Below are positions 25,884 through 62,130 of a stretch of 64,000 bases of DNA, piece after piece. The position numbers and the translations under genes are program-made. The stretch covers positions 2,771 through 66,770 of IMG/VR virus record IMGVR_UViG_3300026430_000265. One strand, 5' to 3'. The first letter of the stretch is position 1; every line of letters starts with the position of its first letter. The notes under the pieces are model-generated. The model did not search any database. It worked only from the letters and a program-made list of their open reading frames with translations, and had not been told where the DNA came from. The stretch comes from a virus.

Positions 25884-28481
25884 ATGCTGTCTCTCATACC
25901 TCGCTACTCTCTTTGGCCGATCGAAAGGAACACGGGTGGGCCACCTCCGAACAATCAGTACGTCTGGTCACAACTTACGTTCAAGGAAGGATTGCCTCTG
26001 GATGAAGGTAGTGAGACGCTGCTAACCCTGGGCAGTGGTGCGTCGATTGATACCAGCGACAGCACCTTGTTGATGACCAACACCACAGATGCTGCCCTCA
26101 ACGGTATGCCTCCACCGTACATCAAGGCGAACGAAGATTTCAGCATCGAAAGCTGGGTAGCGTTCACCTCGGTCAGCCAGTATGGTGGTACCATCTTGTC
26201 TTTGGACATGCTCGGTGCTGGCGGTGAAGGCAATATCTCCATGTACTTCGCGGTTCTGCCTGCACAAGCCATCAACTTCCTGCTGACGTCCACAGGTAAT
26301 CGTGGTGGTGCAGGTGACGCTACCATCACCAACATTCCAGAGCTACTGCAACCCAAGGCGCACATTGCTGCATGCCGTGTCAACGGTGTGCTGACTATCT
26401 ACGTCAACGGTCAGATCAAGTATCAAGGTCCGCACAGTACCGCAGGCTTCTTGTCGACCGAAATGATGAGCATTCGCCGCGGGGCCATCGGTAAGCGCTG
26501 GAACATCCGTATGATGCGTGGCAAGTCCGCGTACAACGGACCATTCACTCCACCTACAGAACTGCCTGCTCTGGTGTATGAGACTTACACTGAGGAAGAG
26601 CAGCGCGGCATTGTTTTTCAGGCCAGCTTCCGTCGTAACGAGTTTATCAACGAAATCACCCGCGAGCCTTTCACGCTCTCCGGTACCGCTGCGATGCAGT
26701 GGAATCGCATCATCACGCAGCAGCCTTCGTCGTCTCGCTTCGAGGCCCCATTGGCGTACTTTGGTGCAGGTGATTTTACCATTGAGTGCAAGTTCCGCAT
26801 CACTCAAGCTATGGGTAACGGGCAGTGTGGCGTTATCACACAGTGGGCGTACGGTGGGCAAGCCGGTAACTCGTGGTGCTTGTTCTTCACTGGTGCGTTG
26901 CAGCTCCAGTTTGCCTATGTTTACTCTGGCACTTCGACGTATGCGTTCAACGCAAACAGGCTTCTTCCGAAGTACGGTGCGGACGTCCATGTCGTAGTAG
27001 AGAAGGTCGGTAACATCGTCTCCATGTACTTCGACGGTGACCTTGTTGGGCAGATGAACGCTCCTCTGCCCATAATCAACAACTCGACAGTTCGGGGCCT
27101 GCGCGACAACTGGGACAGCTTTCCGGCAAACTCGGACGCCCTGCACGTCACCAACATTCGCATCGCAGCGAAAGCGCTTTACAACGGTAACATCGGGCGT
27201 CCGCGTGTAGCACTGCCGCGCGTGCGCACGCCATACAACGGCCCAGGTCCACAGAAGCCAATCGCCGGTAACTTCAACCAGGGTTACTTTGGTGAAGTGC
27301 CAATGAGTGAGGTCATGCAAGGTGTTGATCTTGCGACGTATCTCGGACTCACCGAAGGTACGCCCGTCAATGCTGACACTACATGGTTGAAGTTTGCTCT
27401 CGACGGAAAGATCCTGTTTATTCCGAAGAAGCCATTGCGCACCGGTATCTCGTGGCAGGCGCTCTACCAAGCAGGTGCTGTCTATGGTCTGGAGACGGGT
27501 ACTGGCGTACAGCCGCTGCCTTCATCCAGCCCTGTGCAGCAGACTACTCGCATCACGACTGCTGGTGGGCACTTCCGCGTTCGCCTCCCCACAGGTGCAA
27601 GTCAGAACCCTTACACTGGCAACGGTGCTGCGGGTGCGTCTGTATCTGAGTGGACGTTGCTGATGAATCGCGTGAGTGTGAGCGCCTCAGCAGCTACTCG
27701 TTGGGCTGCCTTCACCAATGAAGAGCTGGGTTTGGATGTGCCTGGGTCATGGTGCCAAGAGTACCTGTCAACAACAACCACATCGCGTGTATGTCGTGGT
27801 ACCAACAACGCTATCGCTGGTATCTCGTCGAACACTGGCGCTGTAGCCAGCCAACTTTGGCGTCCTGTCTTGGAGTTCATCACTCCTGACGTGATTCCTC
27901 TGGTAACAAATGGTAAGTTGGAGACCTTCGTGTCGGCGTACGGCTCTCCTGTCTACAACGACGGCTTCGTCCGCTTACCTGCAGGTTCGTATTTGTCAAT
28001 TCAACCGTCAAGTTCTATGGTGTTCGGCACCACAGATTTCACGGTTGATATTGAATTCAACTGCGCTACGGCTGCGTCTCAAGCGGGCACGTCCATGATT
28101 ACCTTGGTATATTGGGGTACTTGGGCTGCTCCTGGCAAGTTGGTAAACTGGGAAGTGCAGTACAACACCACGAACGGTTACTTCTATTTGTCAACCGACC
28201 ACGGAGGCAACGCGACTTTCTATCGCCTGTACGACTTCCCAGTGCAGATGAACAAGTGGTACAAAATGCAGATTACCCGTGACAACGGTATGATGCAATG
28301 CTGGGTTGACGGTGTGATGATCGGCGAGTTCGCGTTCCCGATCGACATTCAGCTGGACACCCCTTCTGTCATGTACTTCAACCGTCGTCTTGGTGGGAGT
28401 AGTGGTCAGGTCGTGTGGAGTAGCGACATTTCACTCCGCAATTTCCGCATTGCCCAAAAGGGTCGGTCCAAACTAGGCTGA
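25884..28481 (+). CDS. Putative receptor-binding protein: LamG-LamG-[phiKZ virion-paralog-like domain]-LamG; MLSL-tag family member 3
   Basis: Starts MLSLIPRYSLWP; three LamG-like repeats; internal GYFGEV..WLKF..DGKILFIPKKP..ISW..LYQAGAVYG..RVRLPTG..SEW..WCQE..WRPVLE domain. Confidence 0.75.
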   Translation: MLSLIPRYSLWPIERNTGGPPPNNQYVWSQLTFKEGLPLDEGSETLLTLGSGASIDTSDSTLLMTNTTDAALNGMPPPYIKANEDFSIESWVAFTSVSQYGGTILSLDMLGAGGEGNISMYFAVLPAQAINFLLTSTGNRGGAGDATITNIPELLQPKAHIAACRVNGVLTIYVNGQIKYQGPHSTAGFLSTEMMSIRRGAIGKRWNIRMMRGKSAYNGPFTPPTELPALVYETYTEEEQRGIVFQASFRRNEFINEITREPFTLSGTAAMQWNRIITQQPSSSRFEAPLAYFGAGDFTIECKFRITQAMGNGQCGVITQWAYGGQAGNSWCLFFTGALQLQFAYVYSGTSTYAFNANRLLPKYGADVHVVVEKVGNIVSMYFDGDLVGQMNAPLPIINNSTVRGLRDNWDSFPANSDALHVTNIRIAAKALYNGNIGRPRVALPRVRTPYNGPGPQKPIAGNFNQGYFGEVPMSEVMQGVDLATYLGLTEGTPVNADTTWLKFALDGKILFIPKKPLRTGISWQALYQAGAVYGLETGTGVQPLPSSSPVQQTTRITTAGGHFRVRLPTGASQNPYTGNGAAGASVSEWTLLMNRVSVSASAATRWAAFTNEELGLDVPGSWCQEYLSTTTTSRVCRGTNNAIAGISSNTGAVASQLWRPVLEFITPDVIPLVTNGKLETFVSAYGSPVYNDGFVRLPAGSYLSIQPSSSMVFGTTDFTVDIEFNCATAASQAGTSMITLVYWGTWAAPGKLVNWEVQYNTTNGYFYLSTDHGGNATFYRLYDFPVQMNKWYKMQITRDNGMMQCWVDGVMIGEFAFPIDIQLDTPSVMYFNRRLGGSSGQVVWSSDISLRNFRIAQKGRSKLG

Positions 28482-28487
28482 ATAATT

Positions 28488-28526
28488 TAGTCCATAGTCA
28501 GATGCTTGGCTATGGACTATCCTTTC
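28488..28526 (+). terminator. Probable rho-independent terminator
   Basis: TAGTCCATAG / CTATGGACTA perfect 10-bp stem, extendable inward, followed by TCCTTTC; sequesters ATG 28502. Confidence 0.6.
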
Positions 28527-28537
28527 GGACGTATGCC

Positions 28538-28735
28538 ATGAACGTGAGTTTCGATATTCTACCACCAGTAAAAGCCCGGCTCCAGAAGCAACTGCCCAAG
28601 GGTAAGCGCAAGAAGGAAGCTGATCGTGAACCTGAGTTTGAAGATCAATCTCGGGCAATCCAAGGTGATCTGGCTCGCCGGCTCCATCGGGTGCTCAAGC
28701 GTGCGTCTCACCAGCACTATCGAGAAGGTGAATAG
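28538..28735 (+). CDS. Small basic hypothetical protein
   Basis: 65 aa from ATG 28538; the upstream ATG 28502 lies in the hairpin loop. Confidence 0.55.
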   Translation: MNVSFDILPPVKARLQKQLPKGKRKKEADREPEFEDQSRAIQGDLARRLHRVLKRASHQHYREGE

Positions 28736-28737
28736 CT

Positions 28738-29040
28738 ATGGACGTTAAAGGTGCGTTGACTTCTTCCGTGAAGTGGCTCAAGTGGTTGGGAGCTTTGCTG
28801 CTCGGGGTGGCAGTAGCGGTTGTTGTGCGCGCCTTTCCCAAGGGTGGTAGTAGCTCAACTGTGACTGCTCCACCTCCACCAGATATGACCAAGGCGGATG
28901 AAAACGTCAAAGACCTGGAGCAACAGCAGGTCGTGATAAAGGACCAACACACGCAGATCGAACAGACCCTGGCTCCAAAGCCCGTCACTCCCGACAAGAG
29001 TTTGGACGATGCTGTGCGCAACTGGAACGAGGATAAGTAG
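28738..29040 (+). CDS. Bitopic membrane protein, i-spanin-like
   Basis: TM WLGALLLGVAVAVVVRA, Pro linker, short coiled coil; heads the lysis-like cluster. Confidence 0.45.
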   Translation: MDVKGALTSSVKWLKWLGALLLGVAVAVVVRAFPKGGSSSTVTAPPPPDMTKADENVKDLEQQQVVIKDQHTQIEQTLAPKPVTPDKSLDDAVRNWNEDK

Positions 29041-29051
29041 GAGCGTACAAC

Positions 29052-29450
29052 ATGATAACCGAGGCAGTCAAAGGGCTACTTGGTGTCGAACCCGCCGTGG
29101 CACTGACGTACTTCCTGTGCGTTGTCATTGGCGTTCTCATTAACTGGGCAAAGCGCTGTCGTGAACTCGATATCGGGCTGCTGGCTTACTGGACCACAAA
29201 CCCAGTGCGCTCGCAGACTGCCATCATCGGTACGATTGCAGCGTTTGCGTTCACCATCATCACAGACCCTGAGTCGTCCAAGCTGACGTACATGGCCATT
29301 GGCTTTGCGTGCGACAACTTGCTCAACAAGGTACCTGTGACCGGTGCTGCCGCTGACGTGATCGCTCGCCAAGAGGCTGCGATCCAAGTGCAAGAGGCGA
29401 AGATGCAGGAAATCGTCCAGCAACTACCCGACGCGCCCAAAAGCGCATAA
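29052..29450 (+). CDS. Putative holin-like membrane protein
   Basis: 132 aa with 2-3 hydrophobic helices and a charged coiled-coil tail; AGGAG RBS. Confidence 0.45.
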   Translation: MITEAVKGLLGVEPAVALTYFLCVVIGVLINWAKRCRELDIGLLAYWTTNPVRSQTAIIGTIAAFAFTIITDPESSKLTYMAIGFACDNLLNKVPVTGAAADVIARQEAAIQVQEAKMQEIVQQLPDAPKSA

Positions 29451-29455
29451 CCAGG

Positions 29456-29485
29456 ACCCGCAGTGCTGACCGTGCTGCGGGTTTT
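29456..29485 (+). terminator. Weak terminator/attenuator hairpin
   Basis: ACCCGCAG / CTGCGGGT 8-bp stem plus 3 inner pairs, followed by a short U run. Confidence 0.5.
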
Positions 29486-29501
29486 CGCACAGGTAACGAA
29501 C

Positions 29502-29969
29502 ATGAAAATGGTATTGGCAGTGCTCGCCTTGAGCGTACTCACTGGGTGCAGCATGACCCAAGTGCAGCCAGACAAGAGTGATCGCTACAGCGCGTTGGCT
29601 CCAGTGGACAGTCTCAACGCCAAAGCTGTCGATCTACCTGCGGTGCCCCAGATCAAGATTCAGACGATTGGCGAGGAGCGCTTCGCCACTCTGGACACTG
29701 CTGGGATGAACCAACTGAATGCCTATCGGCAAGCAGCCAAGCAGAACACCGAAGCGTTGCAGTTACTGCTCACAGCGCACAACGGCTTGGTGACCCAGCG
29801 CAACCTGATGCTGGAGAATCTCAAGCTGGAAGAGGAACGTGGTAACTACTACGCAGAGCGCTACGCTGACACCGAGAACCAGCGACGCCAGCAGTACCGC
29901 GAACTCACAACCGAGCTGCTGATCCACAAGGCAGTCATCATATTCATGGGCATTTTCCTGGTGATGTAA
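29502..29969 (+). CDS. Lipoprotein with C-terminal TM helix (unimolecular-spanin-like topology)
   Basis: Start 29502 after AGGT; lipobox LTG-C16; helical coiled coil; hydrophobic C-terminus AVIIFMGIFLVM. Confidence 0.6.
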   Translation: MKMVLAVLALSVLTGCSMTQVQPDKSDRYSALAPVDSLNAKAVDLPAVPQIKIQTIGEERFATLDTAGMNQLNAYRQAAKQNTEALQLLLTAHNGLVTQRNLMLENLKLEEERGNYYAERYADTENQRRQQYRELTTELLIHKAVIIFMGIFLVM

Positions 29970-30430
29970 TGGACAACCGTATTCAGATCAGCAAGAGCTT
30001 CACCATGTACGACGTCCAGTTCGACGAAACGGCATTCCGCCTTGGCATCGACAACATCGTACCCAATCAGGACTACGCAGACAACGCGGCCTTGCTTGCC
30101 GAGAAAGTGCTTGAGCCTTTGTGGGCTGAGCTTGGGCCGCAGTACATCACGTCGTGGTATCGCTGCGAGAACCTGGAGCGCGAGTACAGCCGCAAAGCGT
30201 TCGCCATGTGGTGTATCGAGAACAAGAAGCCCATCCGCGAACAGCAGTGGCAAGAGTATCTGGCGATGAAGCAGCACTACACCGCGCAAGCTGTATGCCT
30301 GCGTGGTGATAACGACGCCATCTTCGCGTTCATCAAATCGCTCAAGGACTTCGACGTCCTGCAGCACAAGGAACATTGGATCAGCGTTTCCTGCACGCTC
30401 TCCAACCGTAAACGTGTAATCGAAAAGTGA
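29969..30430 (+). CDS. Peptidase M15A (Peptidase_M15_3)-like protein with altered Zn ligands
   Basis: ISKSFTM..LGIDN..LAEKVLEPL..ITSWYRC..QH..AV-C..FD..W-I-S-VS aligns to the M15_3 consensus (SGYR..SQH..GEAAD..WVHVS). Confidence 0.65.
   Translation: MDNRIQISKSFTMYDVQFDETAFRLGIDNIVPNQDYADNAALLAEKVLEPLWAELGPQYITSWYRCENLEREYSRKAFAMWCIENKKPIREQQWQEYLAMKQHYTAQAVCLRGDNDAIFAFIKSLKDFDVLQHKEHWISVSCTLSNRKRVIEK
30410..30430 (+). repeat. 21-bp direct repeat, copy 1 (copy 2 at 31240-31260)
   Basis: AAACGTGTAATCGAAAAGTGA, the 3' end of the M15-like gene. Confidence 0.9.
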
Positions 30431-30437
30431 GGAACGG

Positions 30438-31235
30438 ATGCTCACGCTAATCCCAGTCAAGTCAAGCATGCCATCGACGGTTGTTGGACAGCAGACGCTG
30501 ACCTCTTCGCAAACCTTCACTGTTCCAGACGGAGCTGAGAATCTTTGCGTCGTAGCGGTGGGATCAGGTGGTACTCGTGGTGCCAACTATGTCTTTGGTT
30601 TTCCCAGCGTAACCTACTTCGCAGGTGCTGGTGGAGGCGGTGCACTATGTTGGGCAAACTCCTTACCTGTTAACCCTGGTGATACCATCGAAGTAAAGAT
30701 TGGTACCCTTGGAAGTCAGACAGATACGACCATCGCAGTCAACGGCACCGTCATACTGCGCGCTGGTGCAGGTAAGAATGGCGGCAATGGGAACTCAGCC
30801 AATGGCGGCACTCCCCAGCGAACGGGTGGTGCTGGCGGTACGTTCACATCTACTTTGCCTGCAGGTACGTGGGGTGGTGGTAAGGGTGCCGCGGGCTCTA
30901 ACGGTATGACGTCAGGTAGCGCTCCACCCTCAGCTGGTGGCGCTGGTGGATATGCGGGTGACGGTGGCTTTGCTAATGGCTCGGTCGGCGGTGGTGTCGG
31001 TGCAGGTGGAGGCGGCGGCTCCAACAAGGGTAGTGCCAGCGGAGGCGTAGGTTTGCAAGGCCAAGGAACAAACGGTCAAGGCAGCTTCACCGGATACTCT
31101 GCGCAAGCTAACGGTTCCCCACCGGGTCCATTCTTTGGAGGTGCGGAAGCTCAAGGTGGCGCTGTGCGATTCATCTGGGGTAAAGGTCGCGCCTTCCCTA
31201 AAACCAGAACAGCGGACATTACAGAAGCTGCCTAG
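30438..31235 (+). CDS. Glycine-rich domain virion protein, MLSL-tag family member 4
   Basis: Starts MLTLIP; TFTVPDG..VAVGSGG..GGGGGALCWAN..VNPG..GAVRFIWGKGRAFP Gly-rich domain. Confidence 0.75.
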   Translation: MLTLIPVKSSMPSTVVGQQTLTSSQTFTVPDGAENLCVVAVGSGGTRGANYVFGFPSVTYFAGAGGGGALCWANSLPVNPGDTIEVKIGTLGSQTDTTIAVNGTVILRAGAGKNGGNGNSANGGTPQRTGGAGGTFTSTLPAGTWGGGKGAAGSNGMTSGSAPPSAGGAGGYAGDGGFANGSVGGGVGAGGGGGSNKGSASGGVGLQGQGTNGQGSFTGYSAQANGSPPGPFFGGAEAQGGAVRFIWGKGRAFPKTRTADITEAA

Positions 31236-52601: not shown

Positions 52602-53176
52602 ACAGTCTCCTTGATTCGTACCTTGTGCCCATCTGGCGCCCATACTTCTTGAGCGTCCATATAGACCTTGATTTCTTCAAAGGTAAACAGCTTATGCTGT
52701 GGGTGGTTGTCGATGCCAACGTCGAGTCGCTTCCCGCGTTGAGGCATTGATCCATGACAGTGGCCGTGCAGATGCCACGAGCCGTAATGGCTATTGCGCC
52801 AGACTTCCCACGGGTAGTGGCACATGGCAATGTCTTTGCCGTGCACCTTGATCCACTTACTGTCGGTGATGCTGCGCACGCGACTCAGGTTGCGCTTGCG
52901 TAGCTCACTCCACAGTTCGATGTGGTCGTGGTTACCCAGAATGAAAATCTTGTTGCCGTTAAGCGCTTCAACCAGATGCTCAAGGCGATCAACTTCACGC
53001 GCTTTGAGGAACGAGAAGTCACCGCCGTGGTAGACGGTATCGCCCGGGCGAACTTGCGAGTTCCAAATGTCGATCAAGCGCTCGGTGTTTTCAGCATTCG
53101 TCCATGGGCGTGGGTTGTAGGTGCAGATGTGCTCATGGTAGAAGTGCAGGTCCGAGGTGAACAGGGTCTCGCTCAT
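52598..53176 (-). CDS. Calcineurin-like metallophosphoesterase
   Basis: FTSDLHF-x-H, YHGGDF, ILGNHD, CHYP, HLHGHCHG motifs; AAGGA RBS. Confidence 0.9.
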   Translation of the reverse strand: MSETLFTSDLHFYHEHICTYNPRPWTNAENTERLIDIWNSQVRPGDTVYHGGDFSFLKAREVDRLEHLVEALNGNKIFILGNHDHIELWSELRKRNLSRVRSITDSKWIKVHGKDIAMCHYPWEVWRNSHYGSWHLHGHCHGSMPQRGKRLDVGIDNHPQHKLFTFEEIKVYMDAQEVWAPDGHKVRIKETV

Positions 53177-53190
53177 GTTCGTAGTCCTTT

Positions 53191-53589
53191 CTATCGAGGC
53201 CCGTAGTCGTAAACTTTCAGGCACCCGTGTTTATCGTAACCGACTTGCATACAGTCCACACTGTCTGTCCACTTGGGTAGCACTTCGGGTCTCGGTACGT
53301 CAGCGTAGATGCGCTGCAACCGTTCCTGCATAACGCAGATGAACCCGTCTACTACCAAGCGTTTCCCACGCGCTTTCGTTGGACCCTGACAGCTACCCTC
53401 CCAGCAGTTGTCAGTTTCACCAGCGAGGTTGCGCGGGAACTTGAAGACGATGCGGTCATTGGCAAACACAAGGCGATTGCGACCGAAGTCAAACGGTTGG
53501 CCGTACTTGGCAATCAAGCGTTCAATCACCTTGTCGGCCTTTGCGCGTGCTTCCGGTGCATCGAGGAATGTGTCGAGTTCGGTAATCAT
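53191..53589 (-). CDS. Hypothetical protein, minimal protein-kinase-like fold
   Basis: G-R-N-R-x-V-F..V-x-K-x-P..G..N..E N-lobe-like pattern and a C-terminal QVGY..G..YDYG. Confidence 0.4.
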   Translation of the reverse strand: MITELDTFLDAPEARAKADKVIERLIAKYGQPFDFGRNRLVFANDRIVFKFPRNLAGETDNCWEGSCQGPTKARGKRLVVDGFICVMQERLQRIYADVPRPEVLPKWTDSVDCMQVGYDKHGCLKVYDYGPR

Positions 53590-53603
53590 GCTCTCACCTT
53601 GCG

Positions 53604-53632
53604 TTTACACTTTAACTGCAATCAGTAGTCAA
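53604..53632 (-). promoter_or_regulatory. Conserved 17-bp element (copy B, 53613-53629) inside a sigma70-like promoter frame
   Basis: Plus strand TAACTGCAATCAGTAGT, 16/17 identical to 60651-60667; minus strand TTGACT-N17-TGTAAA. Confidence 0.6.
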
Positions 53633-53853
53633 GCCGGGCGATACGGCTTCGGCATTTCAGCCCAGGCGATTGGATTAACGCGAACAATGCGTCCGTCGTG
53701 TTGCTGGAAGAAGCCTTCTTTTTGAGTTCCGATAGCGTTCGCCCAGACAGCGCTGGTACATTCCTCGCTGTCTTCGTCCATGGTAACGATGTACGGTCCG
53801 GACTCGGTGGGTTTGTGCTTGCGTGTGCGCTTCCATTTGACTTTGGTAGTCAT
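53629..53853 (-). CDS. Small hypothetical protein (DUF551-like)
   Basis: 74 aa; W..KP-x-ESG-x-Y-I-V..W..F..PIAWAEMPKP pattern. Confidence 0.6.
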   Translation of the reverse strand: MTTKVKWKRTRKHKPTESGPYIVTMDEDSEECTSAVWANAIGTQKEGFFQQHDGRIVRVNPIAWAEMPKPYRPA

Positions 53854-54368
53854 CAGATCAGTTCCGGAATCAAGTGACGGGGAACGTGTTTGTACAGGTC
53901 TTGCAGCGGCACCTCAACCGTCATCGACGGCGAGTAGTTCTTGGCGCCTTCAAAGTACGGGACGCATACGGCAGTGGGTTCGCGTGTCGGGTCCTCTTTT
54001 ACTTCGTCTGCAAGGCAGATCACGTACACGGTGCTCATGGCAGGCAGCCAGTTGGCTTCACCCTGCGTACCGTACTGCACTTGCTTGGCAAGATACGCGA
54101 AGCTGCCTTCACCAACGCCGGCAAGGATCAGCTTGCGCAACTTCGGGTGACGGCGACGTGACATTGCAGCGCGCAGAATCGCAGCCTTGGCACGGTACTC
54201 TTTCGCTGCGATACCCAGTGCCGTAAACAGCACGGTGAAGAACAGGAACTGCCAGATCAAGTTCGGACTGTTCAACAACGTCCACAGGTCGACGATGCGT
54301 GGGTGCTCTCCGCTAGCGCATACGATGGCATAGGCAAGTGCGGCGGACAGGAGAGTAATGAGCATCAT
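53853..54368 (-). CDS. Hypothetical membrane protein
   Basis: 171 aa; two hydrophobic N-terminal helices. Confidence 0.7.
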   Translation of the reverse strand: MMLITLLSAALAYAIVCASGEHPRIVDLWTLLNSPNLIWQFLFFTVLFTALGIAAKEYRAKAAILRAAMSRRRHPKLRKLILAGVGEGSFAYLAKQVQYGTQGEANWLPAMSTVYVICLADEVKEDPTREPTAVCVPYFEGAKNYSPSMTVEVPLQDLYKHVPRHLIPELI

Positions 54369-54967
54369 GCTTGGGTTCCTTGTGCTAACGATTTAATGAA
54401 TTGCGCGAGGTACGTTGGGTAGCTGTCGCGCCAGCATAGGTCTTGTACGTCTGGAATTCGAGGAGGTCCGAAGTCACAGTGTCCGACAGTACCTACACTC
54501 GGCCAAGGTGAGGCGTGAACCAGCACAGAAGACTCCGTACTTTTACCACCTACGTAGTTGAGCTCCATGTGCCCACCGTAACCGCAATAACCGCGCGCAT
54601 CGTGGATAGGGTAGCTCGTATGCTTCCCGTCACCGACGTAGAACAGGATGCGCTCTGGGTTATCGCCCATGTAGCTGCTGTCGTGCACCACACATGGAAG
54701 CCCAAAGACACGGCGCGCTTGCTTCTTGGACTCGATACGCTTAGCCCGATTCTGAGGCCCGTACGGCAGTTCAAAGACAACAGGCATGCCAGCAATACGC
54801 GGCGCACTCTTGTCGATTGCTACCACGCGGCCTGCTTCGATACGTTCGCCAGCGGCAGCCAGAAAGAACTGCCTGGCATTGTTTGCGTGCCGCTCATAGT
54901 TTTGCAGGATCGCTATGGCTTCCTGATCAATCGGATTATCCAGCATTTCGCCAATGCTTTTACCCAT
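54365..54967 (-). CDS. Hypothetical protein
   Basis: 200 aa; GGAG RBS. Confidence 0.7.
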   Translation of the reverse strand: MGKSIGEMLDNPIDQEAIAILQNYERHANNARQFFLAAAGERIEAGRVVAIDKSAPRIAGMPVVFELPYGPQNRAKRIESKKQARRVFGLPCVVHDSSYMGDNPERILFYVGDGKHTSYPIHDARGYCGYGGHMELNYVGGKSTESSVLVHASPWPSVGTVGHCDFGPPRIPDVQDLCWRDSYPTYLAQFIKSLAQGTQA

Positions 54968-54968
54968 G

Positions 54969-55538
54969 TTAGTTCTCCATTCGGGAGTAACGATCTTCGA
55001 CGACAGGCACCATGCTGTTCAAGATGCCGTCGAGTGTGGTTGCAGTCGGGCGCAACGTGTGTCCGTTCTGGCGGAACGTGCGTGCGCTCACTGGCAGCGT
55101 TTCTTCCAGTAGCTGTCTGCCTTGCGTCGCTGTCCAGATGAACGCCTCTTCGCCTTTGTCGATGCAAAACAACATCGCTTTGGGTGCAGCAGGGCTCACT
55201 GGTACGCGCAGCTTAGGCGGCTGCTCACTCCATCGCTCCAACATATCCAGCAGTTGGCTTTCCTGTTCTTCACGAATCAGGTAGTGGATGGTGACTCGCT
55301 TGTTCTTCTGTTCCTCGGTCGCATTGCGTAGGAGCTCCCCAGTCCGCAGCGTGATGCTACCAAAGGTCTTGCAAGCCCGATCGTTGATGAAGCGCAGTAG
55401 CGCGTCGGGTATCGCCCCGTCACTAAACTCCGGCAGGCCAGTGTGCGATATGTGTAGGACGCGCAGCAGGGACTTCAACTTACCTTCCTGTTTCCAGGTG
55501 GTCTTCGATGGGACAGTTGCATGTTGGATTAGTTTCAT
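54969..55538 (-). CDS. Hypothetical protein
   Basis: GGAG RBS before ATG 55538; 189 aa. Confidence 0.7.
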   Translation of the reverse strand: MKLIQHATVPSKTTWKQEGKLKSLLRVLHISHTGLPEFSDGAIPDALLRFINDRACKTFGSITLRTGELLRNATEEQKNKRVTIHYLIREEQESQLLDMLERWSEQPPKLRVPVSPAAPKAMLFCIDKGEEAFIWTATQGRQLLEETLPVSARTFRQNGHTLRPTATTLDGILNSMVPVVEDRYSRMEN

Positions 55539-55559
55539 GTTCGATACTCCAGTGTTGGC

Positions 55560-55575
55560 ACTCAATAAATTGAGT
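55560..55575. promoter_or_regulatory. AT-rich 16-bp palindrome in an intergenic gap
   Basis: ACTCAAT-AA-ATTGAGT with perfect 7-bp arms. Confidence 0.4.
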
Positions 55576-56132
55576 TATGCCAGAACACCCGTCCACGGCA
55601 CAGTTGCCTTCTCCGTGAGACTTTTGAGCGTTGCACCTTCCTGGCGCAGCTTGTCGATCTGGTCGCTGGACAGTTTGGGAATCGTCACTTCTTCCGGCAA
55701 CGGCAGCCCGGCCATTTCACAGCGATCTTTCAGCGCCAGCAAGTACGCTGTGTGGTAGCCGTGCTTGAGGATGCTGTGGGCCTTCTGCTTGCGCTTCGAT
55801 TTACCTGTCTCGTCGGTGTAGTTGAGCACACCCATGACGTCGGCGTAGAAGCGGTCGCCCTTGTAGCCGATTGCGACAAACACGCCAGTGTCTGCCTTGC
55901 TGTTACCGTGGCGCTTACGCGGGCGACGCACACCATAGTCGCTGCTGGTAATGCCAAACTCACGTTCACGCGAGTTACGCCAGGTCTTCGCCTTCTTGAG
56001 TGCGGCCTCTCGGTCATCACCCATCGGGAACCACTGGTTGATTGTCTGTGGCGAGTAGAAACGAACTTGGAATCCGCCACTAGCGCCTTGCTTCACTTCG
56101 GTGATGCGACGCATTTCACTGTTGGTGTTCAT
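55575..56132 (-). CDS. AP2-like DNA-binding domain protein
   Basis: Two AP2-type units: GFQVRF..WF..AL-x2-A-x2-WR and N-x3-TGV..Y..KRKQKAHSI-x-KHG..A..LA..R; GGAGG RBS. Confidence 0.55.
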   Translation of the reverse strand: MNTNSEMRRITEVKQGASGGFQVRFYSPQTINQWFPMGDDREAALKKAKTWRNSREREFGITSSDYGVRRPRKRHGNSKADTGVFVAIGYKGDRFYADVMGVLNYTDETGKSKRKQKAHSILKHGYHTAYLLALKDRCEMAGLPLPEEVTIPKLSSDQIDKLRQEGATLKSLTEKATVPWTGVLA

Positions 56133-56147
56133 ACTTCCTCCGCGTCC

Positions 56148-56993
56148 TCAAGAGGACGGTTGTTGCCGCAGGCCGATCGCATAACCCATCGGTCCGGTGT
56201 ACGCTGGTAGATGGTCGATGAAAGTGTTGAAGAACAGGCGCATCTTGCGATCATCCTCGGGATGCGGAATCACTGTGCGCACTTGCCCATCTTCGAGCTT
56301 ATACGCTGCGATCAAGCCCTTGCGCCAGTCAGGATGCAGCATCAGGTCTTTTGGACCCGCGATTTCCATCGGGTACGGCAAGTCGACCGTCAGGAGCTTG
56401 TACAGCACACCGTCGAAGCCCAGAATGTTGACGCACTCGACAAACGCTTCGAGGTGTGCTTCACGCCTGAAGTCGCACAGGCGCTGAGACAGATCAGTGC
56501 GGTGCGGATACATCAGGACGTGCTTGAGCTTTGCAACTTTCGTAGGATCAAACTTGACTGGCGGGTCGGCGTCTACGATTTCCTTCACCACCTCAGGAAA
56601 CGATTCAGGCGTGAGCCCGAGCGGACCCTGATACACGCGCATCGAATCGGTGATCGCCAGAATGTGCAACTGCAGGTTCTTGTGGTGCTGCTCCATGATC
56701 GTTTTGGTAATCATGCAGTAGCCAGCGAGCGTGTCGAGTTCGATGATGCCCACAGCAAGTTGCCGCCAACGCTCAGGCAGCATCGGTGCCAGCAGGTTGT
56801 TGTGCGGTGTGTCGAGGCGCTTGCGCTCAACCACCACGACTTGCAACTCAACACCTTCGAAGCGGATTTCGTACACGCACTCTTTGAATGCCGCCAAGTG
56901 TTCGTCTTGGTGCATCGACTTCAGGAGCGCAGCCAGATCGTACTCGCGCTTGAAGATCAGTGCGTACTTGGCCTTTACTTGGTTAGCTTTCAT
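56148..56993 (-). CDS. Hypothetical protein built from two tandem ~140-aa repeats
   Basis: GGAGG RBS and ATGA overlap at 56993; HL-x-AF-x-ECV..F-x-GV..WR..Y-x-GP-x-G occurs twice. Confidence 0.75.
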   Translation of the reverse strand: MKANQVKAKYALIFKREYDLAALLKSMHQDEHLAAFKECVYEIRFEGVELQVVVVERKRLDTPHNNLLAPMLPERWRQLAVGIIELDTLAGYCMITKTIMEQHHKNLQLHILAITDSMRVYQGPLGLTPESFPEVVKEIVDADPPVKFDPTKVAKLKHVLMYPHRTDLSQRLCDFRREAHLEAFVECVNILGFDGVLYKLLTVDLPYPMEIAGPKDLMLHPDWRKGLIAAYKLEDGQVRTVIPHPEDDRKMRLFFNTFIDHLPAYTGPMGYAIGLRQQPSS

Positions 56994-57340
56994 TTGGTCA
57001 ACCTCCACTTGGTCTCGACAGTGACTTTGGACTGAACGAGGTCGAGCACTTCACCCACTGGCTTGTGATGGCTCAGGTCCAGTGTGTCGAAGCTGTGCGG
57101 CGTGCGACTGCCATCGCCGTGCACCGTGAATGCCAGCGACGATGAAGTAACCAGACCGAGTGACAACGGCAGATGCGATTCGCTCACGCCGATAGCCACA
57201 AACTTCTTCACCCGATCACCGTCTTGGTACTCAATGTCCACGAGGTCTTCTTGAATCAGGGAAATTTCTGCAATGCGCTTGCACTGCTTAGCCAGATGCC
57301 GAGCGAGAACTTCACGGCTTTGGAACATCAGGATCAGCAT
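56990..57340 (-). CDS. Hypothetical protein
   Basis: 116-aa ORF in operon packing. Confidence 0.7.
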   Translation of the reverse strand: MLILMFQSREVLARHLAKQCKRIAEISLIQEDLVDIEYQDGDRVKKFVAIGVSESHLPLSLGLVTSSSLAFTVHGDGSRTPHSFDTLDLSHHKPVGEVLDLVQSKVTVETKWRLTK

Positions 57341-57343
57341 AGG

Positions 57344-58195
57344 TTACTTCCAGTCGAGGTGCGATTCAGTGTAGTTGAGGACGACGTGCTTGGTGATCGC
57401 GCTGTACGCTCGCTGGCACAGGTGCATATCACGATTGCGCTCACCCGGCAGCGGGAACTCTTTCTGCCTGCGCGTCAGGAAGTCGAGGAAGTCACGCATG
57501 ATTGCCGTGTGGTGGTGCACTTCCACATCGTTGTAATCCATGACCTCTGGCCACATGCGCTTGTACCCAGCAGCCAAGTCGAGGTCGATCAGGCCTTGGT
57601 AATCGCGCACCTTGTAGCTCTTGTCCTGCATCACCGCTTCGCACAACATGGTGAAGCGCAGGGCCAACATCAGCGCACGCTTGGTCGGCGGGTTGTCACG
57701 CACTTCTGGGTCACGCGAACTGCGCTCTGGCCACAGATTGTTGAACGCCATTTCAGCGTAGCGTCGTGCCATCAGCGAACGGTTCTGGTACGCTTCGACC
57801 ATAGGGTAGACGCAACTGTGCATCATTTCCGATTGCGCCATGACGCCCGGGCTGTACACCATGTCGTAGAACACGGGATCGCTACGGGTCAGCAACTGGA
57901 GAGCCTTGCGCAGTTCAAACGACTGTAGGTCAATGCTCACTGGCACGTCATCGCCAGCAGTACCAAGGATGCGGATTGTTTGCGTGCTGCGCAGCGTGTC
58001 TGTGGATTCTTCCACATTGCGTGCCCACGGCAGTTTGACGTGGATGCACTTCAGGTCAATGTCAGAATCTTCGGTGCTCGAACCCCAGCTACGGCTGCCG
58101 GCGTCCGCGACGTGGATAAACACTATGCCATGCTCTTTGGCAATCTGCGCCAGATGGATTTTGACGACTTCACGGTACTGCATGGCTTTACTCAT
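57344..58195 (-). CDS. Pol-beta-superfamily nucleotidyltransferase (RlaP/YcgL-like)
   Basis: AGSRSWG-x-ST-x-DSD-x-D-x-K-x-I-H-V, D-x3-FELRKAL-x-LL-x2-S-x-P motifs. Confidence 0.85.
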   Translation of the reverse strand: MSKAMQYREVVKIHLAQIAKEHGIVFIHVADAGSRSWGSSTEDSDIDLKCIHVKLPWARNVEESTDTLRSTQTIRILGTAGDDVPVSIDLQSFELRKALQLLTRSDPVFYDMVYSPGVMAQSEMMHSCVYPMVEAYQNRSLMARRYAEMAFNNLWPERSSRDPEVRDNPPTKRALMLALRFTMLCEAVMQDKSYKVRDYQGLIDLDLAAGYKRMWPEVMDYNDVEVHHHTAIMRDFLDFLTRRQKEFPLPGERNRDMHLCQRAYSAITKHVVLNYTESHLDWK

Positions 58196-59475
58196 TCGGC
58201 TTCTTCCTTCTTGCAAGTGATACCTTTGCCTTCAAGGTATTCGGTAATTGCGGCTGTGCGGCAGGTGCGCGTGATCGCTTGAATCTTGCGCGTTTTCTGC
58301 CCTTGCGGATCAGGCTCTGTGGCGAGTTGATCTATCGCAGGTCGCACTTCTTCCAACCAACGCGCTTCCAACAACTCGACCAGCTCAGCTACGTTGATCT
58401 GGTGACCTTGCTTGGCGACACCGTACCACGAGTCGAACAGTTCACACTCGTTGGCTTCAAGTTGCGCACGGATGTTCGACGCTAGGCGTTCAAACTTCTC
58501 ACGGCCGTACTCGTCCACGTTCTGGTAGGTGTTGCGCACCAGGTCGATGAAGAACAACATGGCATTGTGGCGCCATTGCTGCGACGGCTCTTCCATGTAG
58601 GATTCGAGGGCCTTGGGCATCACGACGCTAAAGCAGCCGATGCTTGCCAGTTCGCTCTGCTCTTTGTGATCCCAGAACATGCGTCCGATACCATCGAGGC
58701 TTTCACGGTGCATGTCCATCACCTGCATCAGTTCGGCGATGCTGGTTTCAATACTATCGAAGTGACCACGAACACCTTCGATAACGCGACGACGTGCTGC
58801 CGACTCGATGCTATGTAGGCCCTTGTGGCGCATCAGACGAGCGACACGACCACGCACCTCTGTCTCGATCCAGTCGTCCAGATCGTCTGGGCTCATATCA
58901 ATGCCGTTGGCGCTGATCGTCACCTTGATGTTGCGCACGTCATACCCAGGCGCTTTGGTCAGGGCGAGGATGCGCTCACGCGGCGACAGTGCAATGAGTC
59001 GCGCCGTCGGGCTGGTGTGGTGATTCTTGTGGAAGTCGTAGCTGTGCGCTTCCGGCTCCACTTTTGCGATGTTCTCGGCAATGGCGTACACACGCATGGT
59101 GTTGGGCGAGCACGGTATGCCGACGTACTTCACGCCTTCGAGTTCAAACGACTCTGGCCAGTCTACATCTTCACCCGCCTGCATACCGAGTACAAGGTTG
59201 CCGACACTGTCGGTACCCATGGTGTACGTTCCCTTTGGGAGGCCGCCTTTGAGGGCTCGACGTTCTGCCTTGCGCTCACTTGGCATCGAGGGCAGATCAC
59301 GCATCCGCACGTAGATGCGCGTGGTGTCGTTCGCATCTTCGGCCAGCGCTTTGAACTTACCATCACCGTGGCTAACAACGTCAGGCCACGCAGTCATCGC
59401 GTTGGTGAGAATCAGGTTGCCCTCTGGCGTGAAGCCTTCGAGCGTGATGCCTTTCGGGAGGCTAGTCTTGTCCAT
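58192..59475 (-). CDS. Hypothetical protein with a duplicated N-terminal module
   Basis: AAGGAG RBS before ATG 59475; 427 aa; LPKG..GNL-x-L..WP..G-x-K..T-x-R-x-Y occurs twice. Confidence 0.75.
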   Translation of the reverse strand: MDKTSLPKGITLEGFTPEGNLILTNAMTAWPDVVSHGDGKFKALAEDANDTTRIYVRMRDLPSMPSERKAERRALKGGLPKGTYTMGTDSVGNLVLGMQAGEDVDWPESFELEGVKYVGIPCSPNTMRVYAIAENIAKVEPEAHSYDFHKNHHTSPTARLIALSPRERILALTKAPGYDVRNIKVTISANGIDMSPDDLDDWIETEVRGRVARLMRHKGLHSIESAARRRVIEGVRGHFDSIETSIAELMQVMDMHRESLDGIGRMFWDHKEQSELASIGCFSVVMPKALESYMEEPSQQWRHNAMLFFIDLVRNTYQNVDEYGREKFERLASNIRAQLEANECELFDSWYGVAKQGHQINVAELVELLEARWLEEVRPAIDQLATEPDPQGQKTRKIQAITRTCRTAAITEYLEGKGITCKKEEAE

Positions 59476-59541
59476 GTGTTGCTCCTTGAGTGAGTCCAGC
59501 TCAACTGTGCGCTCCGCAGAACGCACAGGCAAACTTATCTC

Positions 59542-60042
59542 TTACTCGACGGTGTTGTTCTTGACGCCACCGAATTCATCATCGGGATTGAAGTCGACCA
59601 TCTTGATGGTGTTCTTCAGGTACACGGCTTCGCTTGGGTCGTTCGCCGAGTAGGTGTCGATAATCTCCTCGAGGTGCGCTCGCGTCTTCGACTGAAACTG
59701 AAAGGTGCACGCGCCCGTGCGGCCAATGTCACCGACGTACTTGAAGGTGCACGCACGACGCTTGCGAATGATGCGCAGCAACTCTTCGGGCAATGCCTTG
59801 GGCGCGTCGGTCAGAATGTCGAGCTCCAGACGATACGCAGGCGGCATGTAGAACAGCTCCAGATTCTGGTCCATGGTGCGTTCGAGTTTGCGCAGCGTGG
59901 CGAAGCTCGGGTACCACTCGCCGTTCTCGTACTTGCTGCCAGTCTCGTGGCTAATGCCGATCTTGGCTGCAAACTCTGCACGGTTCAGGCCAGACTTGGC
60001 GCGCTGTTCGGCGTAGAAGATGTGGAATGCAATGCGGCTCAT
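59542..60042 (-). CDS. XRE/Cro-C1-type HTH transcriptional regulator
   Basis: RAKSGLNRAEFAAKIGISHETGSKYENGEWYPSFATLRKL is a canonical HTH_3; ATGA overlap at 60042. Confidence 0.85.
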   Translation of the reverse strand: MSRIAFHIFYAEQRAKSGLNRAEFAAKIGISHETGSKYENGEWYPSFATLRKLERTMDQNLELFYMPPAYRLELDILTDAPKALPEELLRIIRKRRACTFKYVGDIGRTGACTFQFQSKTRAHLEEIIDTYSANDPSEAVYLKNTIKMVDFNPDDEFGGVKNNTVE

Positions 60043-60578
60043 GGCAGAACCTCCCATGCGATTGGTGCAAAGTTTGCGGACCGCATGAATGTCACGATCC
60101 CATTGTTGAGGGCGACGTTGTACATTTCGCCTTGAGTCGTCTTGGTGCGTGCGCAGTATGCAGCCAGCAGCATCGCCAGCTCATTCACCACAAACACTTC
60201 GGCGCCCGTCTCCCGAGTAACGATCACCTCGACGTCCTCGACAGGCACTGTGACCACGTCGGCACCTGAGATAAACACACGCTCGACCATGGCCTTGGCG
60301 ACCACAGTGAGTTGCGTCTTCTTCACTGCCTTGAGTGGACGAACACCGTGCTTCTGCTCCAGCACCTTGAGGAAGTGCAGGGCACGGTTGAGAATGCCGT
60401 AGGCGCCAACTACTCGCAAGCCAGACTCGGCGCGACTCAGGCGAACACCGTCGAAGCCAATCATGCGACCGACGTCAGCAGACGACAAGCCGAATAGTTT
60501 GCGTTTGGCTTTCACCTTGAGGCCTTGATTCGCTGCCTCGGTGACGTGCTTTGGTGCGCCGCGTAGTTTTGTTGTCAT
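60039..60578 (-). CDS. XRE-like HTH protein
   Basis: KAKRKLFGLSSADVGRMIG..RLSRAESG HTH pattern. Confidence 0.65.
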   Translation of the reverse strand: MTTKLRGAPKHVTEAANQGLKVKAKRKLFGLSSADVGRMIGFDGVRLSRAESGLRVVGAYGILNRALHFLKVLEQKHGVRPLKAVKKTQLTVVAKAMVERVFISGADVVTVPVEDVEVIVTRETGAEVFVVNELAMLLAAYCARTKTTQGEMYNVALNNGIVTFMRSANFAPIAWEVLP

Positions 60579-60641
60579 GTTCGTTTACCTTAACTAAGTC
60601 CATAACCAATGAAGTGCGAGCATAGTATGCTTCACTCGACC

Positions 60642-60671
60642 ATTATAGCATAACTGAAATCAGTAGTACAA
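60642..60671 (-). promoter_or_regulatory. Sigma70-type promoter (extended -10) with conserved 17-bp element copy A (60651-60667)
   Basis: Minus strand TTGTAC/TGTACT-N17/18-TATAAT with TG-n-TATAAT; the palindrome ACTGA-AA-TCAGT lies in the spacer. Confidence 0.8.
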
Positions 60672-60695
60672 GGACTTAGTGGTGAAGATTATAGG

Positions 60696-61079
60696 TTAGG
60701 TAGTCGCGTTGGTTAGCGTGACCACGTCGCTGCCCTTAGCCGCAGAGTACAGCAGACCCAGCACGGCGTTGAGCTCCATCAGATCAACCATCGGGTCGTC
60801 AATCTCACCGACGCGAATGTTGACGTAGGCCGGGTGCCGTTTGGCGTGCACCAGCGTGTGAATGTTGCCCATCTTGTGTCCGATCATACCCAGCAGCTTC
60901 TGGGACTCAGCGCTAATGTTGACGATGATCTGGAGGAACTGCCAGCGTTCCAGCTTAATGACTTCACCAGCATATGGCTGGATGAAGGTGTTGTTCAGCA
61001 CAGACTCCCAACGGCTCGGGTTGCTCAGGCTATGCGTCGCTACAACCTCTTGGTTATGTTGTGCAGTGAATCGCAGCAT
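60696..61079 (-). CDS. Hypothetical protein
   Basis: AAAGGAG RBS before ATG 61079; 127 aa. Confidence 0.7.
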   Translation of the reverse strand: MLRFTAQHNQEVVATHSLSNPSRWESVLNNTFIQPYAGEVIKLERWQFLQIIVNISAESQKLLGMIGHKMGNIHTLVHAKRHPAYVNIRVGEIDDPMVDLMELNAVLGLLYSAAKGSDVVTLTNATT

Positions 61080-61089
61080 GACTGCTCCT

Positions 61090-61106
61090 TTACTGAAATC
61101 AGTAGT
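61090..61106 (-). promoter_or_regulatory. Conserved 17-bp element copy C abutting the RBS
   Basis: Plus strand TTACTGAAATCAGTAGT, 16/17 identical to copy A; TACTGA-AA-TCAGTA perfect 6-bp arms. Confidence 0.7.
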
Positions 61107-61119
61107 GCATAAACAGGCC

Positions 61120-61157
61120 AAATAAAAGGCAGCTATCCCATTGGGCGTCACTGCCTT
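61120..61157 (-). terminator. Rho-independent terminator
   Basis: Minus strand AAGGCAG..CCC-AAT-GGG..CTGCCTT followed by TTATTT. Confidence 0.65.
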
Positions 61158-61161
61158 GCGT

Positions 61162-61344
61162 TTAGTTCAGGCCAGCCGCTTTACGAACTGACCCCAGACC
61201 TGCGGTGTACATCAACGGCCACAGGTCATTCTTTACCTTGTTTCTCATTGCTAAGGTAACATGCTCGGTCGACACCCCGTTTGATTCGGCTGCGAGCCGT
61301 GTCATTACGTCGACCTGATTGTTCGAGGCGTTCTTGTTCGTCAT
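61162..61344 (-). CDS. 60-aa hypothetical protein overlapping the 3' end of 61226-61744
   Basis: Strong GGAG RBS before ATG 61344; ends just before the terminator. Confidence 0.6.
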   Translation of the reverse strand: MTNKNASNNQVDVMTRLAAESNGVSTEHVTLAMRNKVKNDLWPLMYTAGLGSVRKAAGLN

Positions 61345-61744
61345 GGTATTCTCCGAGTTTGACCATCTGGTTTTCAGCAGCACTCAGGTCGATCTTCTCG
61401 ATGGCGTCGAGGATCACCCGAATGTGATTGTCGAACTGGTCTTTCTTTTCGTGGCCATTGCTCAAGTTGGCAATGTGCTTGACGCTCATGACCACGTCTG
61501 CCAGCAGTCGGGCTGCACTGCACAGCGCGCCGCTCGTGGCTCGTTGCACGTTGTTGACCAGACGGCCTTGCGTGCGCAGTTCGTTCATGGACGCTTGAAG
61601 TTCGTCGCTCTTTTCAACCATGAACTTCTGGAAGGCTTCCTGATCTTTGCGGAGCTTCTGAGCCCGGTTGTGTGAGAACCAGATTATGAGCAGCGTCCAC
61701 AAACAGAACAGGCCGGTGAGAATTATTGCGTGTCTTGGTTCCAT
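61226..61744 (-). CDS. Membrane-anchored coiled-coil protein
   Basis: 172 aa; TM IILTGLFCLWTLLIIWF followed by heptads. Confidence 0.7.
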   Translation of the reverse strand: MEPRHAIILTGLFCLWTLLIIWFSHNRAQKLRKDQEAFQKFMVEKSDELQASMNELRTQGRLVNNVQRATSGALCSAARLLADVVMSVKHIANLSNGHEKKDQFDNHIRVILDAIEKIDLSAAENQMVKLGEYHDEQERLEQSGRRNDTARSRIKRGVDRACYLSNEKQGKE

Positions 61745-62130
61745 GGGTGATTCACCATAAGCGGCAGTCGCTTTACCATTACAGGTGCAACTTCGTCGTC
61801 ATATCGCACATACCCAGATCGCTCCAGGAATGCAAGCAAGTGCTCGTTGTGCACCTGATCGACTCGCACCACACCATAGTTGAGCCGTACAGCTTCGGCT
61901 TCGATTGCTAGGAGGAAGGCTTTGAAGTGGCCCTTCCGTTGTTGATCGACGTCGGTGTACACGCGTTGAATCTGGACAGCCGACACTCGTTGCTGCGTCT
62001 CTCTGTCGTAGTGCAGCACGCCGACATTCAACATGAAGTTGACGTGGTTGATGCTATCCTCCATCGGGCGCCGGAACATCGACAGCCGATGGAGGTGCAT
62101 GAGAGAGACCAGATCACTGGTCAGTTCCAT
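61723..62130 (-). CDS. GNAT-family N-acetyltransferase-like protein
   Basis: IQRVYTD-x-DQQRKGHF-x-AFL..AV..V-x-N-x2-L-x2-FLER-x-GY matches GNAT motifs A and B. Confidence 0.7.
   Translation of the reverse strand: MELTSDLVSLMHLHRLSMFRRPMEDSINHVNFMLNVGVLHYDRETQQRVSAVQIQRVYTDVDQQRKGHFKAFLLAIEAEAVRLNYGVVRVDQVHNEHLLAFLERSGYVRYDDEVAPVMVKRLPLMVNHPWNQDTQ

Follow-up and report, generated by a model that had tools for sequence, protein, structure and literature searches.

What is the function of a 17-bp palindrome-cored element that occurs three times in a 64,000-nt stretch of viral DNA (IMG/VR record IMGVR_UViG_3300026430_000265; this whole stretch is called the window below)? On the strand of the genes that follow it, the element reads ACTACTGATTKCAGTWA. 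The original prediction, made from the sequence alone, had taken it for a phage operator that is probably read by a nearby XRE-type helix-turn-helix (HTH) protein, with an RNA hairpin as the alternative. Our comparison of related phages suggests that the element is a DNA operator for a dimeric protein conserved in the clade, most likely serving the timed shut-off or feedback repression of those early operons whose promoters contain it (class I, see below). We assign this reading a probability of roughly 0.55.

The window belongs to a contig of a PaBG-like jumbo phage. It represents the reverse strand of positions 48403-112402 of G000, a 137,684-bp IMG/VR contig with an estimated completeness of 52%, which encodes a virion protein 62% identical to its counterpart in Pseudomonas phage PaBG (Baikalvirus, 258 kb). 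A further contig of 114 kb (G002) shares 96-98% identity with the end of G000, where the two overlap, and extends the same genome type. The lineages compared here are G000/G002, PaBG, G004-G007 and G008, the latter being a complete genome of 277.6 kb. Proteins of these element-bearing lineages are ~25-85% identical, and many early genes fall below 65%. Megablast of the window region against GenBank phages gave no match, and the relatives were recovered by protein and pattern searches. Scanning IMG/VR with a 15-mer gave >110 matches, mostly due to chance; longer degenerate patterns were informative.

Copies and symmetry of the element

At up to three mismatches, the window contains exactly three matches to the element (copies A, B and C, Table 1), compared to a mean of 0.10 in dinucleotide-preserving shuffles, and none of 100 shuffles reaches three. 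Position and reading of all three copies are as originally predicted, and each lies in an intergenic region upstream of minus-strand genes; the window genes in this part are on the minus strand. The genome-wide scan that had been proposed as a check raises the number in G000 to six, all intergenic, with additional copies at 28575, 33510 and 46255, the last one inverted. In a position weight matrix scan of G000, G002 and PaBG, true sites score at least 23.4 bits and the best background match at most 15 bits. PaBG has six high-scoring sites, which are identical to the element at 15-17 of 17 positions. Across four genomes with a coding density of 87-92%, the core AC[GT]ACTG....CAG is found at no fewer than 28 distinct intergenic sites vs 3 in coding sequence, a distribution that is not random with respect to coding regions.

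The positions AC.ACTG....CAG are invariant in G000, PaBG and three metagenomic lineages, and the variant found in G004-G007 is ACGACTGTTCGCAGCTA. The central four bases vary freely (ATTT, ATTG, ATTA, TTCG, ATGA and others), as would fit positions without protein contact. The G008 cassette sites give a match on either strand and form 18-bp palindromes of the type ACKACTG-N4-CAGTMGT with an arm symmetry of 6/7 or 7/7, in which the half-site centers are 11 bp apart. An 18-bp palindrome with this distance between half-site centers is the classical geometry of dimeric HTH repressors, as in lambda and 434. Hence, two-fold symmetry with a half-site spacing of ~10-11 bp (in G008) and overlap with the core promoter (in class I) are both found, as in a dyad operator. 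Moreover, the orientation of the element is not fixed. An inverted copy lies upstream of orthologous genes in G000 and PaBG, and a copy in the non-coding region is inverted in G006. Variable orientation agrees with a binding site on DNA and speaks against a directional promoter or RNA element.

Promoter cassettes with and without the element

Copy B belongs to a module of ~130-170 bp that is shared with the G000 copies at 28575 and 33510. The module starts with a terminator, which is followed by an A-rich UP-like block (ATACCT.AACTAnAA...AACCRTTA), TTG, the element and TGnTATAAT. Its 3' part consists of a variable, usually hairpin-forming stretch of ~30 nt and the block WTGGTTAYG-N4-5-TAGnTnAGGTT before the first start codon. 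In cassette B, the UP-like block reads ACCTAACCTATAAT..CACCACTAAG and is followed by TTGT, the element and TGCTATAAT (hexamer at 60642-60647); the leader carries the conserved block TGGTTATG..TTAGTTAAGGTAA up to the ATG at 60578. The same module, referred to as a class I cassette, is present in PaBG (three copies), G002, G004-G007 and the complete G008 genome (five copies). A scan of bacterial genomes for the cassette returned only a single 1.9-kb contig of a metagenome-assembled genome and thus no clue to a host or prophage.

The alignment of 18 non-redundant class I cassettes yields 1.56 bits per position for the element, 1.68 for TGnTATAAT and 0.63-0.68 for the flanks. Spacers of sigma-70 promoters are normally not conserved. 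Here the spacer is about as conserved as the -10 element, and this is more than promoter function alone would give. All 18 cassettes have an extended -10 element TGnTAnAMT (TGC-TATAAT at copy B), which is missing at copies A and C. The ACT with which the element begins is also the 3' half of the TTG-ACT hexamer at -35, and the -35 scores vary: TTGACT at G000 28575 scores 10/12, TTGTAC/TGTACT at copy B stays below the scan threshold, and PaBG cassettes have TAGACT. A simple promoter scan accordingly passes over copy B, as TTGTAC scores 3/6. In every class I cassette (stand-alone copies excluded), the element spans ~-32 to -16 in a constant register to the -10 element. The sigma-70 frame that had been proposed for copies A and B alike applies to copy B (TTGT-element-TGC-TATAAT). 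At copy A, TTGACT-N17-TGTAAA ends in a poor -10 element without A-11 and T-7, and the start would fall inside the ribosome-binding site (RBS).

A second set of cassettes, class II, has the same UP block, -10 element and leader but lacks the element (G002 9592; PaBG 98444, 102147 and 108847; G008 211887). Class II spacers are unrelated to each other, with a pairwise identity of 3-8/17, whereas class I spacers share 14/17 on average and at least 10. Furthermore, the flanking genes place the class I cassette at G002 14884 and the class II cassette at PaBG 102147 at the same locus. The occurrence of both classes at one syntenic locus suggests that the spacer was exchanged within an otherwise conserved promoter. 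Judged from these alignments, the element is a separable regulatory add-on that marks a subset of the predicted early promoters.

The class II cassettes (G002 ~9510-9660, minus strand; PaBG ~98444, 102147 and 108847, minus strand; G008 ~211887, plus strand) carry TGnTATAMT, and their GC-rich spacers often end in CYGGTG. In PaBG, they lie nearest to the non-coding region described below, and they may constitute a distinct, possibly earlier, temporal class.

Several further features of the cassettes were observed. The leader block WTGGTTAYG-N4-5-TAGnTnAGGTT is located ~10-35 nt 5' of the first start codon (window 60579-60625, minus strand; 25 leaders) and is kept in both cassette classes and in all lineages, with a hairpin of variable sequence upstream. 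Some cassettes have an additional AGTTTGCA(G/A)G box near the start codon. The block could be a translation-initiation or RNA-binding element; RNAalifold found no consensus structure for the 25 cassette leaders. In all cassettes, the upstream TAACC(A/G)TTA and the TGGTTA(C/T)G of the leader are inverted repeats with invariant AACC/GGTT that flank the promoter at a distance of ~95 bp. In cassette B (window 60668-60695 and 60590-60612), the inverted repeat lengthens to 9 bp (ACTAAGTCC/GGACTTAGT). Downstream of the class I cassette at G000 28575, the first gene (28669-29691) encodes a 340-aa protein whose N-terminal third is a Lys/Ala/Pro/Thr-rich low-complexity tract reminiscent of DNA binders of the histone H1/AlgP type, and PaBG gp038, at the same position, has a similar tract.

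Stand-alone copies and the non-coding region

Copies A and C are not embedded in a cassette. Stand-alone copies keep the element at 15-17/17 positions, and their flanks have no similarity to the cassette. Copy A is arranged as TTG-element-AAG-TGTAAA, followed by the RBS AGGTGAG and an ATG at 53589. At the syntenic locus of PaBG (255139) and G008 (54415), upstream of a metallophosphatase homolog, there is a full class I cassette, and copy A looks like a reduced cassette of which only TTG and the element appear to survive. Copy C lies after a terminator and abuts AAGGAG, as originally described: the hairpin has a predicted energy of -18 kcal/mol (z -1.46 vs shuffles) and a TTATTT tail, and the RBS begins 1 nt past the element. 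There is no -10 element at copy C (AGCAGT at that position). A simple terminator scan misses the hairpin, as its loop is too long. The succession of terminator, element and start codon recurs syntenically at PaBG 5162 and G008 41506, in each case followed after a few hundred bp by a class I cassette; the distance between the C-type and B-type elements is 439 bp in the window, 707 bp in PaBG and 797 bp in G008. The genes directly downstream of the C-type sites are not homologous among the phages. A third arrangement is represented by the inverted copy 25-37 nt upstream of the orthologous 576- and 538-aa genes (G000 46255 and PaBG 8636, respectively).

Table 1. Features discussed in the text. 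Positions refer to the window unless a genome is named.
Feature	Position	Strand	Description
Copy A	53613..53629	-	Stand-alone element in a 39-nt intra-operon gap; 1-nt overlap with the stop codon of the upstream 74-aa gene
Copy B	60651..60667	-	ACTACTGATTTCAGTTA on the minus strand; ~-32 to -16 of the predicted class I early-promoter cassette; TGC-TATAAT directly after
Copy C	61090..61106	-	Stand-alone element ~13 nt behind a terminator-like hairpin; abuts AAGGAG-N6-ATG of the 127-aa ORFan
Class I cassette B	60579..60695	-	Aligns with paralogs at G000 28575 and 33510 and with 15 further ones in PaBG and metagenomic relatives
HTH1	60039..60578	-	179 aa, first gene of the cassette-B operon; weak HTH_31 match (E 8.6e-4), below the family cut-off
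HTH2	59542..60057	-	171 aa, XRE-type HTH_3 (E 2.4e-8)
ORFan	60696..61079	-	127 aa, between copy C and cassette B; no Pfam match
AP2-like protein	55575..56132	-	185 aa, basic, two AP2-like modules
Terminator-like hairpin	61120..61157	-	AAGGCAGU...GCUGCCUU, then UUAUUU; ends the upstream operon
Non-coding region	G002 29000-30440; PaBG 116152-117630; G008 ~193.4-194.9 kb		Between gp159 and gp160 homologs

A non-coding region of ~1.4-1.5 kb in every lineage holds 2-5 copies of the element together with other conserved blocks, e.g., CACGAAGTTACTTCG and AAGTCTGCTTCCTGA..TCAC...GTGAACAGGTCGCC, and local repeats. In PaBG, it adjoins the main switch in gene orientation and coincides with the peak of a weak cumulative GC skew. 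The region is thus origin-like and may be an origin or a non-coding RNA locus; an Rfam search of the non-coding regions returned no family.

Intrinsic terminators of G000 (19390-19463, 28460-28500, 76570-76620 and 95200-95263) and of its relatives combine a GC-rich hairpin, whose loop is GNRA/UUCG-like, with the shared tail TTTTTCGTTTC(T/C)G, and in most lineages GCGGTCT... then leads into the cassette. The stretch is also present in 15 RNA-labeled soil metatranscriptome runs and in 5 DNA runs, each with a different study code. In the four runs inspected (X16, X18, X19 and X20; window 53000-61800), the phage occurs only as contigs of 19-83 kb with a word depth of ~480-1330 and no read ends. 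The phage contigs in RNA runs reflect either DNA carry-over into the RNA libraries or a phage bloom in the samples.

Proposed repression, rival explanations and candidate binding proteins

From mostly intergenic copies, the position between -35 and -10, conservation across phages and the full palindrome in one lineage, we infer a dispersed DNA operator. The full site would be the 18-bp palindrome, read by a two-fold symmetric, sequence-specific protein. With their UP-like block and TGnTATAAT, the class I cassettes would be strong host sigma-70 promoters that depend on no additional factor. Their near-consensus extended -10 element suggests that they are active on their own, which favors negative control. 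The site fills the spacer with its center near -23, and a bound dimer would exclude RNA polymerase. One clade-conserved protein could in this way turn down a defined subset of early operons, and class II cassettes, which lack the site, would escape control. The stand-alone sites (A, C, the inverted copy at G000 46255 and the non-coding cluster) might be auxiliary operators, intra-operon roadblocks or control points that include the origin-like region.

Some observations weigh against this reading. The right arm is shortened to CAGYWA in G000, where symmetry drops to 4-6/7. The invariant 5' AC overlaps the -35 hexamer, and part of the conservation could therefore be due to promoter function; likewise, the constant register between element and -10 may be due to nothing more than a common origin of the cassettes. 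It is promoter quality alone that suggests repression rather than activation, and the roles given above to the stand-alone sites, which have no promoter, are proposals. Finally, a Pfam search of ~35 neighboring or conserved small proteins returned no clear regulator besides HTH1/HTH2 and a sub-threshold AP2 match.

There is a modest chance that the element is instead a positive promoter-specificity box for a phage activator, a MotA/AsiA-like appropriation factor or a phage sigma factor (PaBG gene 118), which would set apart a temporal class and make class I cassettes dual early/middle promoters. T4 origins have MotA-dependent promoters, and the copies in the origin-like region recall them. The element overlaps and follows the -35 hexamer in fixed register with the -10 element, the -35 hexamer of PaBG cassettes is weaker (TAGACT), and PaBG-like phages encode sigma-70-like factors (PMC7412058). 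However, none of the 11 stand-alone or non-coding copies has TAnnnT at a plausible spacing, the RBS at copy C begins one base past the element, two conserved copies point against the direction of the genes, the palindromy seen in G008 would be needless for a directional element, and TGnTATAAT promoters need no activator. Improbable, in turn, is an explanation without any trans-acting factor, by which the 17-mer would be kept through descent, gene conversion or recombination among duplicated cassettes, as proposed for T4-type PeSL elements, and stand-alone copies would be decaying remnants. The cassettes are clearly paralogous and repeated, and copy A is located where PaBG and G008 have a full cassette. 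Yet such remnants would have kept the element at 15-17/17 while their surroundings diverged past recognition, the same stand-alone layouts and non-coding clusters are found across lineages, and class II spacers, which lack the element, drift freely.

An RNA hairpin controlling translation or stability of the downstream message, the alternative named at the outset, is highly improbable. Start codons are 13-25 nt away from copies A and C, and the 17-mer alone can form a stem of 4-5 bp, but the predicted energies of three lineage variants are only -4.1, -2.1 and -0.8 kcal/mol, and z-scores in context are close to zero (+0.29, +0.38 and -0.46). Position 15 varies between T and C opposite the invariant A4 without compensation, no pair covaries, the copies in cassettes precede the predicted start and follow terminators, and conserved copies are inverted. 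The local XRE-type protein as reader, with an autoregulatory or timing circuit, fares little better and is very unlikely. HTH2 has a clear HTH_3 domain, and repressors of the XRE/Cro type typically use dyad operators located in promoter spacers. Both HTH genes, which had been assigned to copy A, lie downstream of copy B and lead the cassette-B operon. Nevertheless, neither HTH1 nor HTH2 nor the 127-aa ORFan has a homolog in PaBG or G002 (blastp, phmmer), and a Pfam HTH_3 search of the complete PaBG genome comes up empty, although the element is nearly unchanged there. The phyletic range of the element is thus far wider than that of the HTH genes.

Known binding sites were also compared to the element and rejected. 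MerR-type operators, which the original prediction had mentioned, need a spacer of 19-20 bp, and here it is 17 bp (TTGACT-17-TATACT) in constant register. Although TACTG/CAGTA resembles E. coli half-sites, a LexA SOS box needs CTG-N10-CAG and every copy has CTG-N4-CAG. For a sigma-54 promoter (GG-N10-GC, TGGCAC-N5-TTGCW), copies with TTGCAC-N6-TTGCA are one base too long and have no GG, and the G000 cassettes have TTTCA without GC. The T4 MotA box of middle promoters, at ~-30, is always paired with a TAnnnT 11-13 bp downstream, which here is present in cassettes only. IHF and FNR/Anr-like sites were ruled out on spacing or consensus, those of IHF and Anr by eye.

Which protein might bind the element? 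A speculative candidate is the AP2-like protein, which is found in this clade only, with 59-89% identity and a mean column identity of 75% over 16 homologs. Its AP2 match is sub-threshold (E 0.021), and two homologs carry a precomputed PF00847. The AlphaFold model (pLDDT 83) has two modules, each with a three-stranded sheet followed by a helix. Module 1 aligns to ApiAP2-type Toxoplasma mitoribosome proteins with Z 6.2-7.4 over 57-63 residues, and the model aligns to the tandem AP2 of PfSIP2 bound to two half-sites with Z 5.2 and to the arm-binding domain of lambda integrase with Z 4.0, all of which are middling values. The family profile found nothing significant among PDB sequences, and a Foldseek search of the PDB with the model gave no match at E <= 0.001. 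By synteny, the gene is part of the B-type class I operon in G000, PaBG (257246-257797) and G008, and it is also present in G004. The protein occurs in 4/4 element-bearing lineages and is absent, like the element, from 2/2 more distant phages (NCTB and Erwinia phage Y3); as the same pattern would hold for every gene specific to the clade, the co-distribution is a lead only. There is a small chance that this protein reads the element, providing negative feedback as a global repressor of early promoters and also marking the origin-like region. In plants and Apicomplexa, AP2-type proteins act as transcription factors, and the AP2 type also occurs as an accessory domain in homing endonucleases and integrases; no such protein is known to us as a repressor of phage early genes. 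If true, a bacteriophage would use a beta-sheet DNA-binding protein of the AP2/integrase-arm type as global early repressor.

Two other proteins were considered and set aside. In a 182-212 aa protein with a weak C-terminal HTH_3 (G000 120005-120643, 212 aa; PaBG 187088-187636), the putative recognition helix differs between G000 and PaBG. Within the structural/late region, its gene occupies a divergent gene junction and may encode a late regulator. The phage AmrZ keeps the host-type strand DKFVVRLP with the readers Lys18, Val20 and Arg22, and the invariant positions of the element contain no GGC/GCC; AmrZ sites have GGC half-sites (PMC3325190) or an A/T-GCC-A/T motif (PMC3946381).

The proposed operator resembles the repressor/Cro operators of lambdoid phages (17 bp in lambda OR/OL, 14-18 bp in 434 and P22), which are two-fold sites of 17-18 bp with half-sites about one helical turn apart and a variable central spacer, placed inside early sigma-70 promoter cores in several copies per genome. 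Unlike in lambdoid phages, no cognate repressor gene, immunity region or sign of lysogeny was found here, the sites are spread over >150 kb instead of forming tandem triplets, and many G000 copies have a truncated right arm. In its dispersion, the element resembles the P1 C1 operators and the RK2 KorA/KorB regulons, in which a short operator is scattered over a large replicon, partly in promoters and partly far away, and ties many operons to one regulator. However, the regulators are known for P1, a temperate phage, and for the plasmid RK2, and the P1 operators are asymmetric; a link of the element to replication or partition is suggested by the non-coding cluster only. The cassettes are reminiscent of T4-type PeSL cassettes, that is, repeated similar early-promoter modules with stem-loops or terminators that appear to be shuffled among small ORFan early genes. 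They differ in that the module is longer (UP block, -10 element and a conserved leader of 70 nt), that two classes differ only in the spacer and that the spacer element also occurs alone. The Q-binding element (QBE) at lambda PR' is likewise a protein-binding element in the -35/-10 spacer followed by a conserved initially transcribed region, but it is unique per genome, needs a promoter-proximal paused polymerase and would not explain stand-alone or inverted copies.

For the PaBG genome, only sigma-like factors and AlgZ were named (PMC7412058), and literature searches brought up no account of promoters or operators in PaBG-like phages. Most likely, the element represents an ordinary type of control that is not yet described for these phages, and the operator idea of the original prediction is broadly right. 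The mechanism would be ordinary unless the binding protein proves unusual. The cassettes would yield strong, regulatable promoter parts for Pseudomonas. Moreover, the clade gains a predicted transcription map with long conserved sigma-70 early-promoter cassettes in two classes and an 18-bp operator-like site that distinguishes them and is also found at conserved stand-alone positions and in the origin-like region. The map opens a way into the temporal control of a jumbo phage relying on host RNA polymerase, with cassette pairs that differ in the spacer only as natural controls.

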